Assembly (NCBI RefSeq): GCF_006345805.1 | Contig: NC_042998.1 | Location: 129,022,001 to 129,086,000, forward strand | Length of the DNA stretch: 64,000 bases | Source: Octopus sinensis | Taxonomy: Eukaryota | Direction of reading: 5' to 3' | Shown here: in pieces, positions 1,972 to 50,847 of the stretch | How positions within the stretch are numbered: position 1 is the stretch's first letter | How the letters are laid out: every line of letters begins with the position of its first letter | Program-made: the position numbers and the translations under genes | The notes under the pieces: generated by a model | Databases searched by the model: none | Seen by the model: only the letters and a program-made list of their open reading frames with translations | What the model was told of the DNA's origin: nothing

Positions 1972-2337
1972 TGACCCCTTCGGTCATGAATGACCATGGG
2001 ATTGCACCTGCACAAGTCCGGGCAAGGTTGTTTATGGGAGACCAGCAGTCGCCCACTCATACCAGCCTCCCCTCTCCACGCCACCAGCAAGGAAAAGGAC
2101 GGCAAGGGAAAGTACCAGTGACGTCGCAGCGGCTGAACATTCCACAGACATGTGTACCCTCCAGCGTGACACAGAGTGTGACAAGGCTGGCACTTTGAAA
2201 TACAGGAAACAGGAAGAAAGAATGAGAGAAAGTTGTGGTGAAAGGGTACAGCAGGGTTCACCCCCTGTTGGAGCTTTTGGTGTTTTCGCCCAATAAACAC
2301 TCACAATGCCCGGTTTGGGAATCGAAACCGCGAGCGA
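1972..2337 (-). mobile_element. SINE-like element (family C-related tail)
   Basis: gaccccttcggtcatgaatgaccatgggattgcacc...gggagaccagcagtcgccca is shared with 22761-23055; B-box-like gggaatcgaaacc at the right end. Confidence 0.7.
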
Positions 2338-2351
2338 CCTATATATATATA

Positions 2352-2397
<46 letters not shown>

Positions 2398-2419
2398 ATA
2401 TATATATATATATATATGA

Positions 2420-2578
2420 TGGGTTACTTTCAGTTTCCGTTTACTAAATCCACTCACAAACTTTGATCGGCCCGAGGCTATAGTACAAGATAGTTGCTCG
2501 AAGTGCCACGCAGTAGGACTGAACCCCAAACTATGTGGTTGGGAAGCAAACATCTTACCACGCAACCACGCCTGCGCG
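2420..2578 (-). mobile_element. tRNA-derived SINE family B, head half
   Basis: ctttcagtttccgtttactaaatccactcaca...ggactgaaccc...cacgcctgcgc; same as the 35570-35731 segment, ends at a (TA)n tract. Confidence 0.85.
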
Positions 2579-3432
2579 TATACATATTCCTATATAACAA
2601 CGACTAGGGATATACGCGTATGTGGTTGTATGTTTACTTTTTAATATCAGTTATATAAATATACTTATGCCACTAGTATTTACATACGCACCTACATATA
2701 CATTATCTACGCCGTGAGAGAGAGAGAGAGAGAAAGAGAGAAATTCATGTACACACACACGCACACACGTTCACGCGCACGCACGCACATATGTGAGTAT
2801 ATGAGTGTGCATGTGTATGTAAATGTGTGTACATAAGTGTGCACGTATTTGCATGTCCTTATGTCGTGATTATATGTTTGTATGTTTGAAGATCGTTAAC
2901 GTTTCTTCATACATATCTACTTGGCGTTCCTTTTATAATCTCCTCTTAACTGCTTCTCTCCCATTACTAACATTTATTATTTCTTCCTTCTTACCTCCCT
3001 TTCTCTTCTCACTCTTGCTAATCCCATTTAATACATCCTTCACTAACATTCTGCATTTCTTTTTTTTTAATCTTACCGAGGATTCCCGAAATACTAGATC
3101 TCTCTTCTTCTTTACGACATAATATATTTGTATTATTTTTTGCTCGCGCAGAACATTATTAGTTTCCTAGGATTCTACTGTTTTAATATATAATTAAATT
3201 GAACTCCCTGTGAGCCGTATCCACGTCGCCATTCCTACTTTGGTGCCATTTTACTATACTTACGTTGATCAGTAAATTGTCTTTTCGAAATCATGAAATC
3301 TGATTTCTCAACCCTCATCCAGCCACTTAAATTAATTCTTAGATCTTCACATTTAACAGAAATTGCATATAAAAGGGCTGAATATGAATTATATTTGTAT
3401 ATGCAGACACAACTATACACATATACATATGC

Positions 3433-3535
<103 letters not shown>

Positions 3536-4119
3536 GATTGATCAATCTATGTGTATGAGTTTGAGTGCGTGTGTGTTTGTATGTTTTTCGTATCATGGTA
3601 TAGAAAAAAAATCAATATTTGCTTATAGAGGTAACGCAGATGATCTGTTCTTCCATTTCTCTCTTCCTGTCTACAGTAAAAAGTGTACAAATTACCAAAT
3701 ACCTACAGATATTATAAGAAGCATGTCATACACACCATCATGCATGCACACACACACACACACGCTGACACGCACTCAAACACACGTGTATATGTGTTGT
3801 TACTTTGGTTTCGTAACACATTTTCATGTTGCCACGTCCTTTACCAATTCTTGTAGAACACAGAAATTCTTACAGACATTCGGATGCCATCTGGACATAA
3901 TAATCTTAAATCCCCATGAGATCATATTCTCCTAGTTCTCAGTTCTATCTCCCCCATTATCTATATTCTGACTTACTGTGAAATTAGTAAACTTATTGAA
4001 AAAGATTTTAATATCGATAACTATCAATAGTGAAATCTTATTTTTCAAAATTACGCATAATAGTTATTCTATTATATTGTCTATTTAAATATAACAAAAT
4101 ATAGTATAGCGAATAATAA

Positions 4120-4320
4120 TTTTGGCACAAGGCCAGCAATTTCACAGGAGGGGATTAGTCGATTACATCGCCCCCAGTGTTCAACTGGTACTTATTTTAC
4201 CGACCCCGAAAGGATGAAAGGCAAAGTCTTCCTCGATGGCATTCGAACTCAAAACGTGGAGAGGGACCAAATGCCGCTAAGTATTTTGACCGGCAAGCTA
4301 ACGATTCTACCAGCTAGCCA
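4120..4320 (-). mobile_element. SINE family A
   Basis: ttttggcacaaggccagcaattt...cgaccccgaaaggatgaaaggcaaagtc. Confidence 0.85.
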
Positions 4321-4334
4321 TATTAGAAAATAAT

Positions 4335-4740
4335 AATAGTGGTAGCCGACAAGATGTACCACATGTGATATATAGTTGATATTGCATGCCCCTTTGACCC
4401 ACGAATAGTCAAGAAGGAAGGCGAAAAATAGATAAATACAACCCTCTTAAGTACGAAAGAGCCCGGCTATGGAAAATGAAGAAGGTGAATATAGTACCCA
4501 ATTATTGTTGGGTCTTTGGGAATAATATCAGAATGCATCAAGAGGAATATCAAGGAAATTGGAATAGAGTGATCAGAAGAACTGTTACAAAAGGTTTGCC
4601 TCCTTGGCACGGCCAAAATAACCAGGAAAGTATTAAATACTTCAAAAGAAAAGATAGCATGGTACCGTAGGCTGTAGGTAGCAAGCCCGCTATACATGCA
4701 AGACTCCAGGAGTTCCAGCAAAATATGTGATAAAAAGAAA
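4335..4740 (+). mobile_element. 3' fragment of R4/Dong-like non-LTR retrotransposon (restriction-like endonuclease), decayed
   Basis: Manual translation across frameshifts: IVDIACPFDPRIVKKEGEK..DKYNPLKYE.ARLWKMKKVNIVP.IVGSLG; ends at a (TAA)n tract. Confidence 0.75.
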
Positions 4741-6071: not shown

Positions 6072-7360
6072 CGAGGGGCGTTCAATAAGTAATGCCTCTG
6101 ACCCACTTGAAGTTGTTTGACCTAGCTAAAAGTTTGCATGTGCAATTATTTATATCTCTATAGATTAAGTGGAAAATTACAGCTCTGAACTAATTGTGGT
6201 TTCTGATTTACAGGTGTTTGAACTGAGTCAAGTGTGAAATGGAGCCTGTTGAGTGTCGAGCAGTGATCCGGTTTTTGTATTTGAAAGGACGCACACCCCG
6301 GGAGACTTTTGATGAAATGAAAGTAACTTATGGTGATGATGCCCCATCATATGACCTTTTAAAACGCTGGCATCGTGAATTCAAACATGGTCGGAACTCT
6401 GTGGAAACACCTCCCAGATCTGGTCGTCCCCCTTCTGCCATTGATGAGGCATCTGTCCGTCAAGTTGAGGCTGCCATTTTGGAAGATCGACGCATAACTA
6501 TTCGCCAAATAGCCCATGAGGTCAAGATTAGTACCGGGTCTGTGGAAACTATCATTCATGACCATTTGCATATGCAAAAAGTGTCTGCCAGATGGATTCC
6601 CAGGTTGCTCACACCTTTCCAGAAGCAAGAACGCGTCGAGTGCTCGAGGATGAATTTGGAGATGTGCCAAGAAGATGAGTCAAAATTTTTCAAAAGACTG
6701 ATTACACAGGATGAAACCTGGGTCCATCACTATGATCCAGAGACCAAAGCCAGTCAATGCAGTGGAAGCACCGTGACTCACCTCCTCCAAAGAAGGCAAG
6801 GGTGCAGCCCTCCGCTGGCAAGGTCATGCTCACAGTCTTCTGGGACCAGGACGGAGTAGTGATGACAGATTTCCTGGCAAAGGGTACCACAATTACAGGA
6901 GCCTATTATGCTTCACTTTTGAGGAAATTAAGAGAAGCTATCAAAATCAAGAGGCGGGGCAAGATCAGCAAAGGCATCCTCCTCTTGCAGGACAACGCTC
7001 CGGTCCACAACTCGCGTGTCGCCAGATCAGAAGCACAGGCGTGCGGCTATGAACTCCTCCCCCATCCCCCTACTCTCCTGACCTTGCACCCTCTGATTTT
7101 CACCTCTTCCCAATCATGAAGTTGTTTTTGAAAGGAAAGCGTTTCCCAGATGATGCAGCCTTGATTTCCGAAGTCACGTTGAGGTTGGAGGACCAAGCTG
7201 GGTTCTTCTACAAAAACGGTCTCCAGAGCCGCATCAAACGATGGGAGAAATGCGTAACTCTGGGTGGTTCCTATGTAGAAACAGACTAATAACTGCCAAG
7301 TTTCGTTGCTCTACTGCTATGGGAAGTGGGTCAGGGGCATTACTTATTGAACGCCCCTCG
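6072..7360 (+). mobile_element. mariner DNA transposon, full length (~1.29 kb)
   Basis: TIRs cgaggggcgttcaataagtaatgcc / ggcattacttattgaacgcccctcg; TA target duplication at 6070-6071 and 7361-7362; internal transposase. Confidence 0.96.
6239..7289 (+). pseudogene. mariner DD34D transposase, two single-base frameshifts
   Basis: N-terminal HTH region; WIPRLL, ITQDETWVHHYDPE, LLQDNAPVH and (after a shift) YSPDLAPSDFHLF motifs; TAA stop at 7287-7289. Confidence 0.92.
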
Positions 7361-15254: not shown

Positions 15255-16602
15255 ACCCCCTCTCTCTATCTCTCCAGTAATCTGTTCCTCTCTTCGAAAA
15301 TACGCAACTGATTGCCCTAACCAAAGGAAATTGCTACACTTCTGACCCTTCTAGTTATATGCTTTTAGCATACTTAAAATGATAGAAACAGTTAACAATT
15401 ATCTTTCATCACGAAATCTTTCTCTATCCTCAGGGATCACTAATAAAACTTTTGCCGGGTTTCATCTACCGAAAACTTGCTATATTACTCTCCATTGCTC
15501 TCTTACCCATGTGAACTTCGTCCAAATCAATGCCGATACAATGAGAACCCTACCTATTAAGTTGATATACCGTATAGTCTTCATCTACTTGTCATCTTTG
15601 ATATCAGAAGTTTTCTTTCAGATTACTGCATTGTAGTGTAACCCAACCTGGATCTCTAAACTATATTCTGTTAATGAGTTCATTTATATATATTGCACAT
15701 TGTTGATTCCGCAATTTAAAACATTACGTGTTATTGATACTCACACAACCTCATCTCCATTTTTCTTCTTGCATCAATGTACAGAAGACAACTTCATCGA
15801 TCTAACAGGTTTTAGCGAACTAGCGAAAGCCATGGGAAATGCTTAAACCCTTTCCACAAGTAATATTTGTGTTTATATTTAGACAGACTATATATTTGTT
15901 TATAGTAAATTACAGAACACGTATTCATTTAGCACATATAAAAATGTGAATAGCGTAGCTGTACGTAGAATCTTTACACGCTCACACTTAGATGGAAAGG
16001 TATTCACTGAAAATCATGTAGATACGTCCATGTGTACACATGTATACAAGTGCATTTGTACAAAAACGCCATCAAATTGTCACGGTTTTGCTTGCATTTA
16101 TGCACATATAAACGTATAAATAACTGTCTGGTTAATATTTTTACACAATACCTCAACAAAATGCTCTCCAGTGACTGATTCACAATCTTTGGTTATTAAA
16201 TGTCATAACCAAAGCAGAGTAGCTTGTAGCAATCAGCTAGTACTAAATTAGATTAAATTGTAACAGAGAAACGCCGTAAACGAAGCAATCTAACGTGTGA
16301 ACGACGTTATTATCATACACTGCATTAATAAACGAGTTGGTGCAAACAGTAGAATAACCAAAAATATTCTTTGTCGCTTCTACTTTCCTCTCTCACGTTC
16401 CTGCATTCAAATTCTGTTGGCTTTCTACTTTGCCTTTCAACCCTCCTGGGTTGGTAAAATAATTACCAGAAATATTATATTGTCGTCAAGAGATTAGATC
16501 TAAAATAGCGTGTTGAAACAGATATTGAATATTTTGGTAGAGTCGTATTTGTTAGATTGCCAATTAGTAAAACACATACAGACACACACACACATACACA
16601 CA

Positions 16603-16651
<49 letters not shown>

Positions 16652-17162
16652 GTACACTATTTGTCATTCATTCAGGTCTTTATTAATTTAGTAAGTAAAT
16701 AAATGCGATTTTTCAAAGTAATTGTTGAAGCATTTGGCTTCATTTCAATAACTACGAATAAAAATGTGAAGTAGTAGGCATTGCAAGCTGTCCATTAACA
16801 TTTTCGGCTTTTATTATTATTGTTGTTTAGCCCCAGGTTAGCTTTGACTGAGAAAACAGCTACGTGTGATCCATATATCTATACAGCTTCGAATATGCAA
16901 TGCTTCCATCAGGTTGAGGATAATATTTCAGATTCTGACACGCAGTGGTCGAATACATGTGGTTCTGTGTGGTAATCTGAATACATTGTAACTCTTTCGC
17001 CATTCAGACTATTTCTCTATGTGTATGACGTTGTGACTGTGGTGATGATCACAACAAAGATAAATAAAGCTAACCCGTTCCAACTGTGACAACTGTGGCT
17101 CCTTTCAACATTGTTTTGATAAATACATTTAGGTTTTATTTCTTTTGCGAAATATATAGTAT

Positions 17163-17400
17163 GACGGTGCGTGGCCTAGTGGTTAGAGTGTTGGACGCCA
17201 GATCGCGGTTTCGATTTTCGGTTCGGGCGGTGTATTTTATTTTTGAGCAACACTTCATTTCACGTTGCTCCGATCCACTCTACTGAAAATAAATAATTCT
17301 GGGATGGACTAGCATTTCCGTTATGGTGAATGTTGTGATCCCGGTGCCTTATACGCCCTGGAGAACGGGTAACCAATCCTATAAGTCCTAGGACTTGAGG
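17163..17400 (+). mobile_element. tRNA-derived SINE family C
   Basis: A-box tggcctagtgg, B-box ggtttcgatt, then ttgagcaacacttcatttcacgttgctcc. Confidence 0.75.
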
Positions 17401-17498
17401 GAGTAATGTCCAGGGGTTGATGATGCTGAACGAAGCAACTACACAAAGCTAAAACGGAATTAAAACGGGAAAATTAATGATATATTTTATATCTCTTT

Positions 17499-17710
17499 AG
17501 GCGGGAAGCTGGCAGAATCGTTAGTACGCCGGGCGGAATCCTAAGTGATATTTCGTCCGTCTTTATGCTTTGAGTTCATTTTCCACCGAGGTCAACTTTG
17601 CCTTTCATCCTTTCGGCGTTGATAAAATAAGTGTCAATTGAGCACTGGGGCGTCAATGTTATCGATTGATGCCCTCCCCCGAAATTGCTGGCCCTGAGCC
17701 AAAATTTGCA
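17499..17710 (+). mobile_element. SINE family A
   Basis: ggcgggaagctggcagaatcgttag...cctttcatcctttcggcgttgataaaataag. Confidence 0.85.
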
Positions 17711-18411
17711 TACACTGTTTTATATCTTCGGAATCCAATTTAAGATCCCTATGTTGTAGTGTTTATAAATTACAGTTGTTCTGAAACTTCCGTTGGGCTG
17801 TACTATAACTCGTGTGAACACTTTATCCATGACACAGTAAGTCTTTCATGATTTTGAATTCAAGGCAAGTGCATTTTCGAATGCATTTGTTGCTCCTGAG
17901 TCTGTCTTTTGAAGTCACAACAAATTGGATTATAAAATATTTTTCTCGTTATTTTTGACAATTTATAAGGAACGCAAATTTAATTTTCTTCCCTTTGTAC
18001 ATCCGAAACATTTCAACTGGCATTTTATTTCTTACAGAGCAGCTGTAAGTTCTATGCCCATGTGGTGCGCAGTATCTTTTCTTTTTTGCTTTGATCTTAG
18101 TTTTGTGTATCTGAAAAAAGAAGCAAAAAGACACTGCTTATAAAAAAAAGAGAAAGAAAAAACTGCAAACTCATTTAGCACTCAGTCCTAACATGGTCGT
18201 AACAAAAAAAAAGAAAAGAAGTAAAATCTAAATTCTATCACCATTATTTCCAGTGTACTCCAATTATAGGCGCACGCGTGGCTGTGTGGCAAGAAGTTTG
18301 CTTCCCACCACATGGTTCCGGGTTCAGTCCCACTGTGTGGCACCTCTGACCGACCAAAGCCTTCCGAATTGATTTGGTCGACGGAAACTGAAAGAAGCCC
18401 GTTGTATATAT

Positions 18412-18519
<108 letters not shown>

Positions 18520-18759
18520 ATATATATATAATAGAAATATTAAAATTACTAAGTCTCTCTAAAAGAGAACAACGGCAGCGTTTCCGGAAAATAATAGTTA
18601 TCGCCATACTAATATGGCATTCTTATAAAAATAAGAATAAAGCTGTCCGCTTATTAGCTCCATGAGGCCATCGCCTTAAGTTAGCTATTTGATACACAAA
18701 CTGTATCCATATAACCTTCGAACAAGGGAGGTCAGTCGCTCCACACTATTTGACCGGCA

Positions 18760-18801
18760 GCTACAGACGCGTTTCGGGGTATTGCTCCTTTTCAATGCAG
18801 C
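18760..18801 (-). ncRNA. Minimal type I hammerhead (U3-A8 core), copy with a stem II mismatch
   Basis: Reverse complement GCTGCA-TTGAAAA-GGAG-caata-CCCC-GAAA-CGCG-TC-TGTAGC. Confidence 0.75.
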
Positions 18802-19000
18802 GTAGCCAGACCAGTAGGTGTCGCTTCTGACAATCTCTGTTCGAAGGTTTTATTTACCTAGCTTCGGTGTTCTCTTTTAGAGAGACTTAGTAATTTTAAT
18901 ATTTCTATTATTGAAAACAAGTAGATGTATTCCACCGAAGCTAGGTAAATAAAACCTTCGAACAGAGATTGTCAGAAGCGACACCTACTGGTCTGGCTAC

Positions 19001-19042
19001 GCTGCATTGAAAAGGGGCAATACCCCGAAACGCGTCTGTAGC
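19001..19042 (+). ncRNA. Minimal type I hammerhead ribozyme (U3-A8 core, palindromic stem III)
   Basis: GCTGCA-TTGAAAA-GGGG-caata-CCCC-GAAA-CGCG-TC-TGTAGC; predicted GUC cleavage after 19036. Confidence 0.82.
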
Positions 19043-19205
19043 TGCCGGTCAAGTAGTGTGGAGCGACTGACCTCCCTTGTTCGAAGGTTATATGGATACA
19101 GTTTGTGTATCAAATAGCTAACTTAAGGCGATGGCCTCATGGAGCTAATAAGCGGACAGCTTTATTCTTATTTTTATAAGAATGCCATATTAGTATGGCG
19201 ATAAC

Positions 19206-19291
<86 letters not shown>

Positions 19292-20372: not shown

Positions 20373-20600
20373 GGAGGTGCATGGCTTAGTGGTTAGGTTG
20401 TTGGACTCATGATCATAAGATTGTGGTTTCGATTCATGGATCGGGCAATGCGTTGTTCTCTTGAGCAAAGCACTTCATTTCATGTTGCTCCAGTCTACTC
20501 AGCCGATAAAATTGAGTAATCCTGCAACGGACCGGCGCCTACCGTCCAGGAAGGAAAGCATACGTAGAGATACCGGGAAACCGGGCTTATGCTCCTTACG
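20373..20600 (+). mobile_element. tRNA-derived SINE family C
   Basis: ggaggtgcatggcttagtggttagg...ggtttcgattc...ttgagcaaagcacttcatttcatgttgctccagtc. Confidence 0.8.
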
Positions 20601-50180: not shown

Positions 50181-50847
50181 CAACAATTGAGGGTAAAATT
50201 AATTAATTAATCAATTTCACCAAGTATTCAGTATGCAAAGGGACCATTTAAGGCGAATTCAAATTATTACATTATATAAAAGGGCTTAGTAAAATAAATT
50301 ACTTTGCCGCATACTGAACTCATTAGAAATAGCAGCTAAAAAAAACTTTTTTAAAACTATTTCTAATACTTAAAGAAAACCTCTCTCATATAGTGTTTGC
50401 TCAATTCAACTCACGAAAGTATGGGGGTAGAGACATTAAAAAATCAAATGCAAAGGTTATTTGAGAACGTACGTTTCAAGTATGTTCAGTATGCGGCAAA
50501 GTAATTTATTTTACTAAGCCCTTTTATATAATGTAATAATTTGAATTCGCCTTAAATGGTCCCTTTGCATACTGAATACTTGGTGAATTTGATTAATTAA
50601 TTAATTTTACCCTCAATTGTTGAAATTATAATTCATCTCTCTCTATTTAATGCCTCGGATTTTACCGAAAAAAGCATAGTGTTTACTGATTTTAACCCAC
50701 GCTGGTGGAAAGGGGAGAGCAGAAATTCTTCGCTTGCATATTTGAGTTTGCTGGCACTGTTAGTTTCGAGCAGATCTTCAGAAGCGATAAGAAGCCGAAA
50801 GGGTATGCTCCCACTTTCAGTGTTTTCAAATCCAAACCAGGGAGTTC

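Follow-up and report, generated by a model that had tools for sequence, protein, structure and literature searches.

The window, a stretch of 64,000 nucleotides on the contig labelled C2 of a 2.72-Gb Octopus sinensis genome, holds a two-armed insertion whose target is an (AT)n microsatellite, present as the left flank at positions 18405 to 18527 and, followed by (GT)n, as the right flank at 19212 to 19257. We number the underlying repeat unit from u1, at position 18868 of the plus strand, and divide it into segments B' (u1 to u44), Y (u45 to u65, 21 nt), A' (u66 to u344), and X (u345 to u363, 19 nt). The right arm (18868 to 19211, plus strand) reads u1 to u344, or B'-Y-A', with its outer 3' end at u344, a position that we call S1. 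Arm mapping places the left arm, of 342 nt, at 18528 to 18869 on the minus strand; it runs from u66 to u363 and on through u1 to u44, and its outer 3' end at u44 is called S2. The 63 nt from S1 to S2, made up of X and B', constitute a tail with a small hairpin that occurs at this end only (18528 to 18590, minus strand), and the two 5'-truncated arms meet at an inner junction at 18865 to 18869. The anatomy given in the earlier note, with inverted arms, pieces X, Y, and B', a 2-nt TG overlap at the junction, and about two differing sites, was recovered throughout: the TG microhomology lies at 18868 to 18869 (5 nt if one mismatch is admitted), the 279-nt arm segments at 18591 to 18869 and 18933 to 19211 differ at 19016 and 19053, and 18528 to 18574 inversely repeats 18865 to 18911 at 46 of 47 positions. 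Within the family these variants are scarce, occurring in 4 of 206 unit readings at one site and 2 of 219 at the other, and so probably arose privately in this young insertion. A motif scan recovered no further copies of the unit within the window, and the flanks at this site are pure AT, against which a target duplication would not stand out. Elsewhere in the window, diverged short repeats (16424 to 17630, 17166 to 17289, and 20376 to 20509; 79 to 82% identical as pairs around the insertion) are probably SINE-like elements, and the motif scan found other identical or near-identical repeats, some of them inverted, at about 43700 and 45300, at 50480, 50880, and 51440, and at 6710 and 22120.

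The order of the window's pieces had been taken to imply a cyclic 363-nt unit, A'-X-B'-Y. A natural array at locus L030 has the order B'-Y-A'-X, with nine anchors spaced exactly 363 nt apart and 4 of 363 sites differing from the window's pieces, indicating that the cyclic unit is real and more than a reconstruction; the continuity A'-X-B'-Y-A' is present in this array. The 35-nt ribozyme core has 1,011 exact copies in the genome (520 forward, 491 reverse; none for the control), and units occur in head-to-tail arrays of up to 10 with a 363-nt period, in keeping with the tandem organization and size of about 150 to 450 bp of retrozymes. We judge the unit to be noncoding, as 363 nt is too short for a reverse transcriptase (RT) and the mapped insertions consist of unit sequence; no LTR is present, the GC content read from the printed unit is low (<50%), and the unit and its arrays lack the RT plus GIY-YIG ORF of an autonomous Penelope-like element (PLE). 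A sister family, B, with 2,658 candidates, is also 363 nt long and is 84% identical to the window's family, A; its copies (L076 to L105 and L069:6241-6794) carry compensatory ribozyme changes and the same two ends as family A, and L280 has a form intermediate between the two. The locus likely belongs to an already known class, that of the non-LTR retrozymes, and we found no description of this octopus family in the literature outside subscription journals and Repbase. Fourteen runs guessed to be RNA contain about half of the sampled unit words, and the four that were examined consist of assembled contigs. In four runs, filed under three organism codes, contigs carry a family-B-like piece (u316 to u40) fused to identical unrelated upstream sequence; this joint (reference L030:1816 and 2179) comes directly after AG and possibly marks an exonised copy, and each of two exact patterns for it gave no match in the genome.

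A predicted type I hammerhead motif occupies 19001 to 19042 on the plus strand, at the tip of a predicted long imperfect stem (18953 to 19089). Its core reads UUGAAAA (U3-U4-G5-A6-A7-A8-A9) at 19007 to 19013. Stem I pairs 19001 to 19006 with 19037 to 19042 (GCUGCA/UGUAGC), stem II lies at 19014 to 19026 (GGGG/CCCC) and is followed by GAAA at 19027 to 19030, and stem III comprises two pairs with a palindromic ACGCGU loop and C17 at 19036. The left arm carries the same motif at 18760 to 18801 on the minus strand, with C17 at 18766 and a G-to-A change that breaks one stem II pair; the same change recurs in every second unit of locus L208. The motif itself, its position at the stem tip, and the predicted cut at 19036/19037 stand as first proposed, but the core is of the U3-A8 type and not CUGANGA. 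An alternative reading of it as CUG-CAUU-GA with insertions was dropped, the U3-A8 register being given by family B and by PMC4209133. With this core and three stems, the modelled motif corresponds to the type I motif of retrozymes, and self-cleavage at 19036/19037 is predicted.

Folded as a circle, the unit reaches -119.4 kcal/mol, compared to -83.0 ± 5.1 in 60 shuffled sequences (z = -7.1). The minimum-energy fold recovers the long stem, as predicted with the hammerhead on its tip, and places stem I in a different, inactive register. In Rfam, the window had no match at the gathering score and 16 at an E value of ≤10, all subthreshold and mostly to microRNA-type hairpin models, with no hammerhead among them; families with a U3-A8 core are evidently missed by Rfam and by screens based on CUGANGA. 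Motifs are identical within the family in 36 of 43 cases in family A and 20 of 31 in family B. Relative to family A, family B has G-C for G.U in stem I, A-U for G-C in stem II and in distal stem I, U at position 7, and ACATGT for ACGCGT in the stem III palindrome, such that two pairs are altered on both sides and one on one side, and position 7 is A, U, or C. Across five sequences of the two families 92.5% of cells pair, compared to 21 to 54% in slid controls, with 15 of 500 shuffles as high; this covariation is consistent with a hammerhead but weak. U3-A8 in place of C3-G8 has been reported in PLEs of Schistosoma (PMC4209133), U3-A8 hammerheads are described as natural and active in vitro (PMC3088659), and 8 of 9 Xenopus retrozyme dimers are reported to have failed to cleave (10.64898/2026.07.22.740005).

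We mapped insertion ends in three sets of loci: 90 loci that yielded 50 distinct insertions after removal of duplicate views and nine rows at locus edges, 20 more loci with 22 insertions, and 40 loci taken in genome order by the ribozyme motif alone, with 41. The end windows (u341 to u348 for S1 and u41 to u48 for S2) were set on the first set, and the two long arrays at L186 and L187 were examined whole. Three loci with opposite arms >40 bp apart, each with S2 plus S1 (L198, L202, and L207), were counted as single arms, and the statistics on 168 arms do not include five arms joined to a LINE or any insertion with three or more pieces. Among 113 family-A insertions, 79 are two-armed, always with the 3' ends outward and never inward. 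Sixty-six of the 79 have one S1 and one S2 end and 13 have one end elsewhere, with no S1/S1 or S2/S2 case; the S1/S2 pairing was seen in 35 of 40 in the first set and replicated in 22 of 27 in the third. Among 16 two-armed family-B insertions, 11 are S1/S2, two S2/S2, and three other, and the ends at L247 are at u37 and u44. The window insertion, with S2 on its left arm and S1 on its right, is typical of the family. Its arms had been described as circular permutations, but mapping of the start points across copies reveals two fixed 3' ends 63 nt apart, between which lies the PLE-type tail, and it is these, and not cuts anywhere on a circle, that account for the permutation.

The remaining features of these insertions are also those described for PLEs: an inverted 5'-truncated arm, a tail at one end, and an AT or microsatellite target with duplication. 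Inner junctions overlap by 1 to 8 nt in 56 of 77 two-piece insertions, and 49 of the 79 two-armed insertions have AT repeats on both sides under a strict filter. Several of the other 30 show clear target duplications (L013, L190, L204, L231, and L242); duplications are about 7 to 14 bp with a mode of 12 bp in automatic scoring, which includes matches inside AT repeats and leaves edges ambiguous. The arms' 5' ends cluster at u203 to u222 (19070 to 19089 in the window), in the 3' strand of the long stem (27 of 168, compared to 9.3 expected), which could mark a polymerase stop or an RNA 5' end. An enrichment of 5' ends at the ribozyme cut was sought and not found (6 of 168 in u165 to u175, compared to 5.1 expected).

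This is probably a non-LTR retrozyme written into AT microsatellites by the RT-endonuclease of a PLE, with the two arms started from S1 and S2. The PLE enzyme would nick both DNA strands about 12 bp apart, and one nick would prime at S1 and the other at S2, on the same RNA or on identical RNAs from one source. Both cDNAs would run 5'-wards through successive units of a template that exceeds one unit, halt at variable, structure-biased points, and then join via microhomology. In the one PLE described as reconstituted in vitro, the protein, a predicted dimer, cleaves AT-rich DNA on both strands, extends each of them, and begins synthesis at two neighboring positions inside the RNA between which the tail lies; ribozyme cleavage was dispensable, and uncleaved RNA was the main substrate (PMC11167929). 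Genomic PLE copies are likewise reported to have an inverted 5'-truncated arm, often with the tail at one end only (PMC8557442). There are also counterpoints to the PLE reading, namely, a tail of 63 nt compared to the 30 to 40 bp described for PLEs, the two S2/S2 insertions of family B, and the u37/u44 ends of L247.

The octopus genome holds intact elements with RT plus GIY-YIG that end in (AT)n and have a U3-A8 core in their terminal repeat. One such ORF encodes 781 amino acids with a cysteine motif ahead of the nuclease, a feature reported from the Neptune and Nematis clades (PMC8557442); this element has no detectable sequence in common with the unit. No partner PLE with similarity to the unit was found in 65 GIY-YIG stretches examined, among 147 matches listed of 5,029 candidates. 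The single hit, at L047, was considered as the pseudo-LTR of a partner but proved to be a neighboring family-B insertion that lies 1.2 kb away from the ORF; no similarity was seen in 14 other elements. In the intact PLE at L062:874-2310 and 2232-4574 (family L061 to L075), the RT-GIY-YIG ORF is preceded by an overlapping 479-amino-acid ORF that has no Pfam match and is broken at the same place in several copies, perhaps by a frameshift or an intron; the terminal repeat of this family has a U3-A8 hammerhead of minimal form, together with a tail about 45 nt long.

The arms also bear on the form of the template. The predicted cut site is crossed by 121 of 168 arms, 91 exceed one unit, and the longest reaches 3,567 nt; together with the lack of 5'-end enrichment at the cut, this rules out a linear monomer cut by the ribozyme as the template. 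At 14 sites polymorphic in the family, the two arms of an insertion agree in 1,252 of 1,274 comparisons (883 expected if independent), 63 of 72 insertions agree over the full haplotype, and tandem units within one arm agree in 1,983 of 2,032 comparisons, all of these comparisons being mutually nonindependent. Because both arms are mostly of one haplotype, one template likely served both DNA strands, and the simplest reading of these sequences is that each insertion drew on a single RNA or on one homogeneous source; later gene conversion could lie behind part of the concordance. Two arrays depart from uniformity. The 10-unit arm of L186 is heterogeneous in a period-4 pattern, with the opposite arm sharing variants with only some of its units, and variants in L208 alternate with period 2, so that a multiunit template or later DNA-level duplication is needed. 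The window's two arms span only about 410 nt of RNA together, and a linear RNA of that length would suffice to yield them.

On balance we lean toward an uncut linear multimer as the template, a ligated circle being close to an even prospect, and both forms may be in use. The more specific alternative, in which hammerhead cleavage and ligation yield a 363-nt circular RNA and this circle serves as the template, copied round from both nicks, is tenable but somewhat short of probable. Such a circle would agree with the uniformity of units within an arm (1,983 of 2,032), arms as long as 3,567 nt, the stable circular fold (z = -7.1), a cut site without 5'-end enrichment (6 of 168 compared to 5.1), and the reported expression of coral, mussel, and axolotl retrozymes as circles (PMC7229834). 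It is harder to reconcile with the period-4 heterogeneity of L186 and the period-2 alternation of L208; moreover, a homogeneous source array predicts equal concordance, and the main substrate reported in vitro was uncleaved RNA (PMC11167929). Since genomic tandems carry the same junction, a read that spans it would not be proof of a circle. What survives of the initial interpretation is a young, noncoding hammerhead repeat with a PLE-type inversion and a template of more than one unit, without the free start points on a circle.

A second retroelement is tied to this family. The interval u108 to u123, empty in the window (18975 to 18990, plus strand), is duplicated in other copies around a 5,363-bp LINE with a zinc-knuckle ORF1 and an APE-RT-zinc finger ORF2 (L247:3648-9010; also L246, L248 to L250, and L255 to L304). 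We examined 30 LINE loci, a few from the same clusters, among 40 listed of 52 candidates. The LINE sits at u107/108 in 29 of the 30, of which 27 run into the unit and two into the duplicated target and then another LINE, forming two LINE-target-LINE stacks; the remaining locus, L277, has a solo LINE that is truncated. Nearly every copy for which both ends are visible is full length, and such copies lie in the orientation of the unit, flanked by a 16- to 17-bp duplication; the flanks, as we read them, fall into three host haplotypes (10, 10, and 2 of 22). A sequence shared upstream of u108, considered as an intron or a PLE body, proved to be this LINE. At about 72.50 to 72.53 Mb of C3 (L285 to L289), a two-armed insertion some 29 kb long, whose ends are S1 and S2-like, contains five units, each with a full LINE (period about 5.7 kb). 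Four units there share a private variant, while one of the LINEs that they carry most resembles copies at other loci. This locus and the host haplotypes favor repeated site-specific insertion of the LINE; because some LINE variants go with particular flank haplotypes and it is unusual for truncated copies to be so few, carriage as cargo may contribute in addition. With two ORFs with APE, RT, and zinc fingers, and a fixed site with duplication reached more than once, the LINE has the features of the Tx1 type for which we looked; a sequence atlas look-up returned generic LINE clusters only, and we found no report linking a Tx1-type or site-specific LINE to a retrozyme target in the literature outside subscription journals and Repbase.

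These observations could be combined into a three-tier system of parasites, in which a PLE dimer would grip the 63-nt tail of one circular ribozyme RNA, obligately prime the two strands at S1 and S2, and roll out both arms, and in which the site-specific LINE would target the retrozyme beside its hammerhead, may use transcription and self-cleavage of the unit for release of its own RNA, and would sometimes ride as cargo; as a whole we consider this scheme unlikely. Less likely still is that the unit is the orphan pseudo-LTR of some autonomous PLE and the insertions its 5'-truncated copies. Such an origin has precedent, as 24 of 57 Xenopus retrozyme families are reported to be homologous to known elements, nearly all of them PLE ends (10.64898/2026.07.22.740005), and a PLE of the octopus genome also has a U3-A8 core, but PLE coding sequence is absent from arrays as long as 10 units, the mapped arms are unit sequence, the recurring long neighbor is the LINE, without a tblastn match to PLE protein, and the hammerhead is of a more complete type I form, in which stem I is bulged and stem II has 4 bp.

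Twin priming is the mechanism of L1 inversions, and an APE-type LINE is tightly tied to this family, which raises the prospect that the LINE mobilizes the element in this ordinary way. Outward-facing arms and inner microhomology would result; however, neither end has poly(A) or a simple tail, the second priming site is fixed and not variable, the arms overlap in RNA coordinates, and the LINE takes the unit as its target while its one solo copy (L277) is of the ordinary truncated form, all of which makes this route very improbable. A DNA-level satellite rearrangement, or an assembly or chimeric-read artifact, might be suspected from the long AT palindromic flanks and from the absence of the window junction among the 32 contig pieces listed of about 5,000, but it is scarcely credible given 79 dispersed two-armed insertions with fixed, paired outer ends and varied inner junctions, target duplications at nonmicrosatellite sites, a one-sided tail where a fold-back would make symmetric arms, and contigs of public run X15 with many left-arm to right-arm joints (those of X15, X16, and X17 ending in (AT)n at S2), and the family-wide end pattern disposes of the chimeric-read explanation that the earlier note had named as its own refutation.

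What gives the finding its value is the pairing of the ends, along with the site targeted by the LINE; a 363-nt circle is plausible. With a 363-nt RNA and two known start positions, the origin of inverted one-tailed PLE insertions becomes testable at the bench, and retrozymes, entered by a LINE at one site, would add a class to the known targets of site-specific retrotransposons. The octopus LINE is likened by its features, rather than by a tree, to LINEs of the Tx1 clade (Tx1 in Tx1D, Keno, Kibi, and Koshi), which are described as having two ORFs of the same kind, the first with a zinc knuckle and the second with APE, RT, and zinc finger, and as occupying a single fixed position in another repeat, with a target duplication and stacked copies (PMC4494074 and PMC4640811); it differs in that its target is a ribozyme repeat, which it enters in the matching orientation immediately upstream of the hammerhead. 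The ribozyme resembles the hammerheads reported for the Schistosoma PLE Cercyon (PMC4209133) in its U3-A8 core and its short palindromic stem III, predicted there to act as a dimer, and is unlike them in residing in an ORF-less tandem unit and in having a bulged and extended stem I.

Metazoan non-LTR retrozymes, their circles, and a proposed link to PLEs have been published (PMC7229834 and 10.64898/2026.07.22.740005), and in these accounts they share with the octopus unit a noncoding tandem repeat of 150 to 450 bp with one type I hammerhead per unit, low GC, dimeric to multimeric copies, no LTR, a self-paired fold, and coexisting PLEs as the proposed mobilizer. The octopus unit differs in its U3-A8 core and in that most copies are two-armed and inverted with fixed paired ends; in the available text of PMC7229834 the word "inverted" does not occur, and that of 10.64898/2026.07.22.740005 lacks "tail" and has "inverted" in a reference only. 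Coral, mussel, and axolotl retrozymes are reported as circles (PMC7229834); the octopus unit is known here from genomic sequence and assembled contigs. With PLEs, as described in PMC8557442 and PMC11167929, the repeat shares partial tandems, an inverted 5'-truncated arm, a one-end tail, AT or microsatellite targets, and two RNA start sites, while it lacks an ORF and its tail is 63 nt instead of 30 to 40 bp. The available accounts propose that PLEs mobilize animal retrozymes on the grounds that the two co-occur and share terminal homology, and do not draw on insertion structure (PMC7229834 and 10.64898/2026.07.22.740005); the octopus family offers a countable footprint, with one S1 and one S2 end per insertion and arms of one haplotype.
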